From Escherichia phage MLF4: a stretch of 64,000 bases of DNA. The stretch lies in sequence record NC_055780.1; one strand, given 5' to 3'. The stretch's first letter is position 1. Each line of letters begins with the position of its first letter. The notes under the pieces were generated by a model. That model searched no databases and was not told the DNA's origin. It was given only the letters and a program-made list of their open reading frames with translations. Below are positions 21,296 through 22,126 of the stretch, piece by piece. The position numbers and the translations under genes were made by a program.

Positions 21296-21750
21296 TGGAA
21301 TTTAAAGACTTTTCAACGGGTCTTTATGTGGCAGCTAAGTTTTCAGAATTAACACTTGATGCGCTGGAAGAACTTCAGCGCTCTTTACGTGTTCCTAATC
21401 CAGTTCCTAGAGAAAAAATTCATTCGACTATATGTTATTCAAGAGTAAATGTTCCGTATGTTCCATCAAGCGGAAGTTTTGAAGTAGCTTCTTCTGGACA
21501 TTTAGAAGTATGGAAAACACAAGATGGATCTACTCTTGTACTTGTACTAGATTCTGAATATCTGCGCTGTCGACACATGTATGCGCGGGCGCTAGGTGCT
21601 ACACATGATTTTGACGATTACACACCGCATATAACATTGTCTTATAATGTTGGGCCCTTATCATTTAGCGGTGATGTACAAATTCCGGTCGTATTAGATC
21701 GTGAATACAAAGAACCTCTTAAGCTTGATTGGGCAGACGATTTAAAATAA
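21295..21750 (+). CDS. 57B: gp57B, 2H phosphoesterase (anti-CBASS Acb1-type), 151 aa
   Basis: Two H-x-T/S motifs (HSTI, HITL) typical of 2H phosphoesterases; length and position equal T4 57B. Confidence 0.85.
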
Positions 21751-21796
21751 TTTCACAAAGTTGTTTACACACTGATGAGGTAGTGATACTATTACC
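21735..21796 (+). repeat. direct repeat copy 1 (57B 3' end + early promoter)
   Basis: GATTTAAAATAATTTCACAAAGTTGTTTACAC…TAGTGATACTATTACC repeated at 22065-22126 (offset 330 bp). Confidence 0.85.
21763..21792 (+). promoter_or_regulatory. T4-type early promoter (GTTTAC -35, TGaTACTAT -10)
   Basis: GTTTAC at 21763-21768, about 18-nt spacer, TACTAT at 21787. Confidence 0.6.
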
Positions 21797-21823
21797 TCAT
21801 CAAAATTAATTAGGAAAAATAAA

Positions 21824-22054
21824 ATGAAAACTTATAAAGAGTTTGCTACAGAAACTATTATCACTGAATCTTCTCATGGTATGGAAGTAAAGCTTGGAAT
21901 GGCTTTAGCTGAAGCTGAGCGTCTTTTCTCTCGTATTAAAGAACTTGCTGCTGCAGTCGATCCTTCGTCTTTTAAAGGAGACCAAACTAAAGTTAAAGCA
22001 CTTTTAGCATTATGCTCTGACGCAGGAGAAATCGCTAAAATGGTTCTAAGATGA
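21824..22054 (+). CDS. internal-protein-like head protein with capsid targeting sequence (76 aa)
   Basis: N-terminus MKTYKEFATE matches T4 internal protein CTS (MKTYQEFIAE); sits where ipI lies in T4. Confidence 0.7.
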   Translation: MKTYKEFATETIITESSHGMEVKLGMALAEAERLFSRIKELAAAVDPSSFKGDQTKVKALLALCSDAGEIAKMVLR

Positions 22055-22064
22055 AGAAACGATT

Positions 22065-22126
22065 AGAAGATTTAAAATAATTTCACAAAGTTGTTTACAC
22101 GGGGTTTTAGTAGTGATACTATTACC
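22065..22126 (+). repeat. direct repeat copy 2 (57B 3'-end footprint + early promoter)
   Basis: Near-identical to 21735-21796; includes remnant coding …EDLK-stop mirroring 57B …DDLK-stop. Confidence 0.85.
22093..22122 (+). promoter_or_regulatory. T4-type early promoter (duplicate)
   Basis: GTTTAC at 22093-22098 plus TGATACTAT; copy of promoter at 21763. Confidence 0.6.

Follow-up and report, generated by a model that had tools for sequence, protein, structure and literature searches.

What occupies the interval between genes 57B and trna.4 of a T-even phage, and what do the sequences that bracket it tell us about how its contents are exchanged? We have considered this question for Escherichia phage MLF4, using a stretch of 64,000 nucleotides (nt) of sequence record NC_055780.1, which we refer to as the window. 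An initial annotation, made from the letters of the window alone, had called attention in this interval to an open reading frame (ORF) of 76 codons that begins with MKTYKEFATE, and had proposed that the ORF specifies a divergent member of the internal proteins (IPs) that are packaged and injected with phage DNA. We conclude that the feature is very probably the ip5 cassette of the ipI-type IP locus of a Tequatrovirus, a judgment that applies jointly to the identity of the gene and to the architecture of the cassette.

Identity and Distribution of ip5

The ORF is indeed present in the ORF list for the window, and it exhibits significant similarity (E = 6e-41) to the PHROG family phrog_3499 ("internal head protein"), albeit over profile positions 1–72 of 85 only. 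Its ortholog in RB32 is annotated as "Ip5, similar to RB15 T6 T2 RB70 Ip5 ... replaces ipI", the AR1 ortholog is listed in RefSeq as an internal head protein of 85 amino acids, and the gene name ip5 also appears in the annotations of RB14, RB51, wV7, and PP01. The assignment to the internal proteins was thus correct, as judged by a leader of the form MKT(Y/F)KEF and an (I/L)-x-E motif at residues 13–15, but the gene is not a new one: ip5 is named and widespread, being found at 80% identity or greater in about 267 Tequatrovirus records (the mature T4 protein IPI* is found in 292). Nor is the product of 76 amino acids the protein of the family, but rather an artifact of a frameshift that is private to the window (see below). 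In every relative Ip5 is 85 amino acids long and ends in ...KNGSKMKKRLEDLK, and when the frame is restored the window protein is 100% identical to the Ip5 of teqskov, JY01, and AndreasVesalius.

The location of the gene agrees with this identification. In the window, as in AR1 and RB32, ip5 is placed between 57B and trna.4, the position that is occupied by ipI in T4. Judged by its sequence, the source of the window is a Tequatrovirus: a nucleotide search with the region around ip5 matched 857 phage records, mostly Tequatrovirus, with 98.9% identity to that of Escherichia phage AR1, and over its first 20 kb the window matches Shigella phage SfPhi01 at 99.5% identity. It follows that the window represents a mosaic T-even genome.

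Ip5 is 95–100% conserved over about 250 Tequatrovirus records. A further 228 records, from Mosigvirus and Gaprivervirus, contain an Ip5 homolog of less than 60% identity (about 51% among the matches listed); among the matches listed, these homologs adjoin the lysozyme gene e, the site of the second IP locus (e–denV), in the company of ip10 and ip7. Only three clusters, each of them IP-like and with the same leader, were recovered when 1.84 billion representative proteins were scanned exhaustively with HMMER, and hence the family is confined to T-even-like phages. We also note the arrangement in Gaprivervirus VR25 (positions 2501–4226 of locus L004), in which the Ip5 homolog overlaps the end of lysozyme gene e and is followed by denV and then by three IP genes (ip10, an unnamed one, and ip7), with a GTTTACA early promoter that begins right after the ip5 stop codon. 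Thus, another genus displays the same layout, an ORF followed by a promoter, at its second IP locus. Both polymorphic IP loci of T-even phages, with their flanking promoter and inverted-repeat sequences, have been described before (PMC2839356, citing Repoila 1994; PMC3012670; PMC12373910).

Promoter Modules on Either Side of ip5

A repeat search revealed a single family of direct repeats, two copies of which flank the ORF. That such repeats exist had been seen from the start, although their length proved to be 69 nt rather than about 62 bp. When aligned, the copies are 86% identical, and they lie 330 nt apart from start to start. They have two exact matches in common, a 32-mer (GATTTAAAATAATTTCACAAAGTTGTTTACAC) and a 16-mer (TAGTGATACTATTACC), and differ mainly in the 10-nt block that separates the two, which reads ACTGATGAGG in copy 1 and GGGGTTTTAG in copy 2. 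In the window, a 20-mer taken from the repeat core occurred four times at three or fewer mismatches, as compared with a chance expectation of 0.02. Each copy contains an early promoter, as had been claimed, in which TTTACA and TACTAT are separated by a 17-nt spacer and the −10 element is TG-extended. This is the "UP/-35/TGn/-10" type of T4 early promoter, whose extended consensus consists of UP, −35, TGn, and −10 elements (PMC2988021). The two copies are hereafter called the left and the right module.

We compared the modules extracted from the loci of T4, AR1, RB32, JLBYU24, bov9_1, and the window. The module that precedes ip5 in AR1, RB32, and JLBYU24 and ipI in T4 is that of copy 1, and the module that precedes trna.4 in T4, AR1, RB32, and bov9_1 is that of copy 2. 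Each copy in the window harbors an inverted repeat that overlaps its −10 element, and 13 of 14 modules (T4, AR1, RB32, JLBYU24, bov9_1) have kept a hairpin about the −10 element, with folding energies of −10 to −17 kcal/mol. Among the hairpins that were kept are some in which a pair of arms is changed on both sides (GATGAGGTA/TACCTCATC versus GATGGGGTA/TACCCTATC). A role for the hairpin as a terminator was considered and rejected, because no T-tract is present on the 3' side of the module hairpin and a terminator scan made no call there.

Promoters of the T4 early type (GTTTAC-N-TGnTAyTAT) are not restricted to the two modules. Ten were found, all on the + strand, at positions 21763, 22093, 26580, 27309, 33864, 38057, 41813, 43514, 46470, and 54569. 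Several of the ten have an upstream block, TTTTCACAAA, and a downstream block, ACAACTATCAACTAC, in common, and therefore other pairs of promoters in the genome could act as recombination modules.

Variation of the Cassette among Relatives

The proposal that the gene resides in a swappable cassette between promoter modules was borne out when the locus was compared across relatives. The arrangement in both AR1 and the window is module–ip5–module. T4 exhibits the 57B tail with the left module, then ipI, the right module, and trna.4, both of its modules being as in the window. In RB32 the genes ip5, ip9, and ip7 are bracketed by four modules, which are spaced by 330, 331, and 380 nt, and the RB32 annotation remarks on 43-bp direct repeats that flank ip9 and ip7, whereas JLBYU24 carries ip5 and a second IP gene. 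Finally, bov9_1 has no cassette at all. Its one module is chimeric, with the 57B tail and the common 5' half leading straight into a 3' half of the right type and trna.4, a junction that is the exact product expected of a crossover between the two copies in the window. All of the cassette boundaries compared lie within modules.

An empty-site probe was uninterrupted in nine phages among the 60 matches listed (bov9_1, bov10K1, slur02, slur04, slur11, slur13, A6-6, PTE-Eco15, and 11B_SA_NWU). Split matches among the same 60 imply inserts of about 300 nt (annotated as Ip6 in JK1), 335 nt (ip5), 366–372 nt (ipI), and 387 nt. Since ipI, ip5, stacked genes, or nothing can be found at 57B–trna.4, the presence/absence and replacement polymorphism is real.

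We propose that exchange is carried out by phage homologous recombination, with crossovers that would take place in the 32-nt exact core, in the 16-nt block at the −10 element, or in the conserved leader codons. Cassettes would thereby be deleted, inserted, exchanged, or stacked, each bringing its own promoter; in the window, early transcription of ip5 would begin at the left module. Cassette exchange by the phage homologous recombination machinery via short homologies has been proposed for the promoter-early stem-loop (PeSL) elements of other phages (PMC2839356).

The DLK-Stop Tail

The initial annotation had recognized the last codons of a 57B-like gene in each copy of the repeat. For copy 1 this is so, the closing codons of 57B (...DDLK-stop) being the beginning of the copy. 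The second ending, ...EDLK-stop, is instead the true C-terminus of full-length Ip5, in frame in all relatives, although its DLK-stop matches the 57B tail (GAC GAT TTA AAA TAA in 57B and GAA GAT TTA AAA TAA in ip5). The idea that it is a relic of a duplicated 57B was considered and rejected, given the frame and given that the match to 57B covers only the last three to four codons.

In Tequatrovirus Ip5, D-L-K-stop begins exactly at the start of the direct repeat and exactly where homology to distant Ip5 relatives stops. The relatives from Gaprivervirus and Mosigvirus (about 50% identity) align through ...EIAKNGSLMKQRLE and then continue with KYISAASTK-stop, and more distant relatives of Ip5 terminate in QHAAGVEKE or VGDGVEK. 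No ending of the DLK-stop type is found in ipI, ip9, ip7, or the second gene of JLBYU24. The DLK-stop codons of Ip5 appear to be derived from the 57B tail. Most simply, the ip5 cassette would have joined the locus through a crossover in 57B, a few codons short of its 3' end. If ip5 was captured in this manner, then module-mediated exchange can rewrite the C-termini of its cargo.

Leader, Cleavage Site, and Predicted Fold of Ip5

Residues 1–15 of Ip5 (MKTYKEFATETIITE) correspond to the capsid-targeting leader and end in a predicted site, I-T-E, for the prohead protease gp21, with cleavage predicted before S16. The specificity of gp21 is L/I-x-E, and ten leader residues are enough for capsid targeting (PMC9026906). 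A leader of the form MKT(Y/F)xEF (MKTYKEFATE in Ip5 versus MKTFKEFTST in T4 IPI) is kept in all members of the family. The (I/L)-x-E motif at residues 13–15 is kept in relatives of as little as 40% identity, being I13-T14-E15 in Ip5 and L-N-E at the same columns in the distant relatives that were aligned, and a short-leader variant has MQTYQTFITE and then SSHG. For T4 IPI, the sequence MKTFKEFTSTTTPVSTITE is followed by 76 residues, in agreement with the 76-residue mature IPI* (PMC3012670). Predicted mature Ip5 is a protein of 70 amino acids, 7.5 kDa, and an isoelectric point (pI) of 9.2, as compared with 76 amino acids, 8.0 kDa, and a pI of 9.0 for IPI*.

Comparison with T4 IPI, to which the gene had been likened, gave a divided result. 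The leaders are related, but the BLASTP alignment is confined to residues 1–26 (leader and cleavage site), and beyond this point mature Ip5 is, at the level of sequence, unrelated to IPI*. AlphaFold2, run with an eight-sequence alignment, returned a model with a mean predicted local distance difference test (pLDDT) score of 82 and a predicted template modeling (pTM) score of 0.63, in which the leader is disordered and helices span residues 17–44, 54–63, and 67–83. Mature Ip5 is accordingly modeled as, and predicted to be, a three-helix protein. A sequence search of the PDB gave no informative match for Ip5 (best E = 0.56), and nothing in Pfam exceeded the cut-off. Likewise, Foldseek found no match for the model in the PDB (best E = 8) and only the Ip5 family itself in BFVD.

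A Frameshift Private to the Window

The ip5 allele of the window differs from those of all relatives by the deletion of 1 nt in a run of A residues. In a three-way DNA alignment AR1 and RB32 read GCTAAAAATGG, whereas the window reads GCTAAAATGG. With the extra A, the frame goes on ...EIAKNGSKMKKRLEDLK to the TAA at 22078–22080; without it, the protein reads ...EIAKMVLR and then stops. The last 13 residues are thereby replaced by four. Because the sequence is altered from residue 73 onward and ends at residue 76, most of the predicted third helix is lost. The allele is a member of phrog_3499 by descent, but it is truncated and does not extend through the C-terminal helix, ...EIAKNGSxMKxRLE, of the full-length family.

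The deletion was absent from all 471 phage records that matched a 116-nt probe over the site, the best match being 99.1%, that is, the single gap, and the exact 76-residue product had no record in a large protein collection. The frameshift allele was not found in IMG/VR, but the intact allele is absent there too, and so that collection is uninformative on the point. Relative to AR1, only three indels are present over 4.2 kb, two of which are changes of ±1 in A-runs inside the ip5 cassette. We note in this regard that at 21811–21815 the A-run between the ip5 Shine–Dalgarno sequence and the start codon is A5 in the window and A4 in AR1 and RB32. The ip5 allele of the window is either inactive or the result of a homopolymer sequencing error.

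A Possible Role for Ip5

By inference from T4 IPI–IPIII, the N-terminal leader would dock Ip5 to the scaffolding core of the prohead, gp21 would cut after I-T-E15, and the mature, basic protein of about 7.5 kDa would be packaged along with the DNA and injected before genes are expressed. Mature Ip5 would then, by analogy, most probably block one particular nuclease of the host, a GmrSD or type IV enzyme directed against glucosyl-hydroxymethylcytosine DNA. Each of the proteins Ip1, Ip2, and Ip3 inhibits a different GmrSD enzyme, and the three have only the leader in common (PMC12373910). On the strength of that analogy an anti-defense role, as originally suggested, is plausible for Ip5, and we would put the chance that it has a role in anti-restriction at about even. 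We advance somewhat more tentatively the idea that Ip5 is an injected inhibitor, with a small three-helix fold unrelated to that of IPI*, of a further host defense, which could be a GmrSD subtype beyond those of Ip1–3 or another class of nuclease. If this were true, the frameshift in the window would be a natural null that marks a lineage propagated on hosts without that defense.

Host defenses encounter internal proteins before any other phage molecule, and the arrangement in cassettes accounts for the ability of phages to swap effectors of this type. In sequenced T-even phages Ip5 is roughly as frequent as IPI, which makes it a sensible candidate for functional screening.

Alternative Explanations

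Could the repeats be merely neighboring T4 early promoters that are alike by virtue of a long consensus, with no role in recombination, the locus varying by, for example, illegitimate recombination or the action of homing endonucleases? The extended consensus for which T4 early promoters are known (PMC2988021) and the ten promoters of the same type on the + strand, several with common blocks, would be in keeping with such an explanation. Yet the 32-nt exact stretch of the local copies extends beyond the promoter into the closing codons of the preceding genes, the empty site of bov9_1 and the slur phages is exactly the product of a crossover that leaves a single module, the annotators of RB32 remarked on the repeats around ip9 and ip7, and every boundary compared falls inside a module. 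We consider it very unlikely that the repeats have no part in exchange, and we favor recombination between modules. The frameshift presents a closer choice. We regard it as a real possibility, if somewhat less than an even one, that the ip5 frame is intact in this genome and that the ORF of 76 codons is an error of homopolymer sequencing or assembly. After all, the difference is 1 nt of length in an A-run; a second A-run difference (A5 versus A4) lies 220 nt upstream in the leader region of ip5, the pair accounting for two of the three indels relative to AR1 in 4.2 kb; the deletion was seen in no other record; and the C-terminus that is missing is conserved across genera. Homopolymer errors, however, should recur through the region, yet the adjoining ORFs are intact, and runs of four or five A residues are rather short for systematic error. 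Moreover, a real null allele would be viable, ip genes being non-essential.

With respect to function, Ip5 might instead be a generic basic core protein that aids in neutralizing the charge of DNA, in packaging, or in ejection, rather than an anti-defense protein, in which case the variability would reflect neutral drift in a gene that the phage can do without. In favor of this view, mature Ip5 is a small, basic protein, lysines of the internal proteins touch DNA phosphates in T4 heads (PMC3012670), the gene is dispensable as judged by the empty site in some phages, and the allele in the window is itself frameshifted. Nevertheless, this explanation seems to us unlikely: all three T4 internal proteins, including the abundant and basic IPII and IPIII, are specific inhibitors of GmrSD enzymes (PMC12373910); the near-invariance of Ip5 in Tequatrovirus, together with about 50% identity and the same helix pattern in other genera, points to selection on a folded protein; and the alternative cassettes specify folded proteins that bear no relationship to one another, as opposed to copies of a single gene that have drifted apart. 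Some observations do weigh against our preferred interpretation of the locus as an ip5 cassette for an injected inhibitor. The similarity of the repeats is in part the genome-wide consensus of T4 early promoters, and the T4 late-promoter motif (TATAAATA) was not found just upstream of ip5, its nearest upstream occurrence being at 20690. The allele in the window is without the conserved C-terminus, and a functional protein may not be made from it. A literature search for Ip5 found no virion proteomics, processing, or target experiment. Finally, no solved structure, Pfam family, or informative predicted fold matched, so that the class of target assigned to Ip5 is pure analogy.

Genome Context and Neighboring Features

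The gene order from about 21000 to 23600, all on the + strand, is gene 1 (dNMP kinase), 57A, 57B, the ORF of 76 codons, trna.4, trna.3, trna.2, a conserved hypothetical gene, an HNH-like ORF, and the tRNA cluster. The conserved genes 57B and trna.4 form the left and right flanks of the IP locus, whose features are collected in Table 1.

Table 1. Coordinates of the ip5 cassette, its modules, and its flanking genes in the window
Feature	Position	Strand	Description	Basis
ip5 as read in the window	21824..22054	+	76 amino acids, MKTYKEFATE...; 3' end frameshifted	phrog_3499; RB32 annotation; alignment
Repeat copy 1 (left promoter module)	21735..21803	+	57B tail GACGATTTAAAATAA; A/T-rich upstream part TTTCACAAAGTT; −35 TTTACA 21764-21769; TG and −10 TACTAT 21787-21792	
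Copy 1 inverted repeat, overlapping −10	21773-21782 and 21793-21802		Arms TGATGAGGTA/TACCTCATCA; 13-pair hairpin, −17.4 kcal/mol, z = −3.7	
Repeat copy 2 (right promoter module)	22065..22133	+	ip5 tail GAAGATTTAAAATAA; upstream part and −35 (22094-22099) as in copy 1; −10 TACTAT 22117-22122; drives trna.4	
Copy 2 inverted repeat, overlapping −10			GGGGT..TAGTA / TACTA..ACCCT; 5' arm unlike that of copy 1; 44-nt module folds at −12.9 kcal/mol	
A4 run (A5 in all relatives)	22037..22040	+	1-nt deletion; conserved C-terminus NGSKMKKRLEDLK becomes MVLR	
Displaced original 3' end of ip5	22051..22080	+	MKKRLEDLK-stop, now out of frame; ancestral stop TAA 22078-22080	
Gene 57B, left flank	21295..21750	+	151 amino acids; annotated RNA ligase or phosphodiesterase	phrog_755, E = 5e-68; AR1, RB32, T4 annotation
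trna.4, right flank	22151..22336	+	61 amino acids, hydrophobic	phrog_1692, E = 6e-35; annotation in relatives

Other features of the region were observed in passing. An antisense "hypothetical protein" of AR1, ar1_148 (positions 2343–2477 of locus L001, − strand), runs across the left module and the beginning of ip5 and is probably an annotation artifact. At 23480 the window has a 3-nt in-frame deletion relative to AR1 (AR1, AGAAGAAGAAA; window, AGAAGAAA), located in the conserved hypothetical gene that precedes the HNH-like ORF. The HNH-like ORF itself (23602–24234, + strand; about 202–210 amino acids) has a weak match under the cut-off to an HNH domain (PF01844, E = 0.005) and lies directly before tRNA-Leu (24241), at the spot where AR1, T4, and RB32 have tRNA-Gln. 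ARAGORN did not find tRNA-Gln in 23400–27000, and the ORF looks like an insertion or replacement of the homing-endonuclease type at the tRNA-Gln position. A second ORF with a capsid-targeting leader is located at 31250–31723 on the + strand. Its product, of 157 amino acids (MKTYQEFITEAAINS...), matches the Pfam family DUF7412 (E = 2.5e-95), and the ORF presumably belongs to the second IP locus as a gene for an internal protein.

Comparison with Known Systems

The closest counterpart of the gene is the Ip5 of T2, T6, RB15, RB32, RB70, AR1, wV7, and PP01 (phrog_3499), which is the same gene at the same locus between the same flanking modules and is 95–100% identical over residues 1–72. Compared with the Ip5 of other T-even phages, the allele in the window stands alone in its 1-nt deletion and the altered end that results. 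T4 ipI, whose product IPI* is injected and inhibits the type IV restriction enzyme GmrSD of E. coli CT596, occupies the same 57B–trna.4 position with the same left and right modules as ip5. IPI and Ip5 have a related leader and the I-T-E motif, and the mature proteins are alike in size and charge. The mature parts, in contrast, exhibit no sequence similarity, the Ip5 model has no fold match in the PDB, and Ip5 does not qualify as a homolog of IPI*. Indeed, IPI* consists of two beta sheets flanked by helices (PMC3012670), whereas Ip5 is all-helical by prediction.

The flanking modules have precedents of their own. Repoila et al. (1994; EMBO J 13:4181) reportedly observed that most IP ORFs have, both up- and downstream, a sequence of about 70 bp in which an inverted repeat overlaps an early promoter, and are said to have proposed recombinational shuffling at IP loci via the flanking repeats. 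Between repeats of this kind and the modules of the window there is no difference of substance; a possible difference of detail is that the ip5 repeat reaches 13–16 nt further, into the DLK-stop codons common to ip5 and 57B. According to Arbiol et al. (2010), Repoila et al. (1994) saw PeSL-like sequences at both variable IP loci (PMC2839356).

The PeSLs of RB49 and phi1 are repeated sigma-70-type early promoters with a stem-loop that flank small, non-essential ORFs in hyperplastic regions, and recombination between neighboring copies deletes, inserts, or replaces an ORF (PMC2839356, PMC4122927). The ip5 cassette resembles them in that a strong sigma-70-like early promoter is repeated on either side of a small accessory ORF. 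However, the stem-loop of the RB49 and phi1 elements (often GGGG...CCCC) is a separate element that sits beside the promoter and acts as a terminator, whereas the inverted repeat of the ip5 modules overlaps the −10 element and no separate, adjacent terminator stem-loop is found. We therefore refer to the ip5 modules as PeSL-like rather than as true PeSLs, a term taken from PMC2839356. The natural variants at 57B–trna.4 have exactly the junctions expected from recombination between flanking copies. To our knowledge, mini-circles have not been shown for the IP cassettes of T-even phages. Both the literature and GenBank annotation already contain the gene, its leader, and the promoter repeats that flank it, and nothing about them is new in principle. 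Only two points are specific to the window: the private frameshift, possibly an error of sequencing, and, as a minor observation, the DLK-stop tail that ip5 and 57B have in common.

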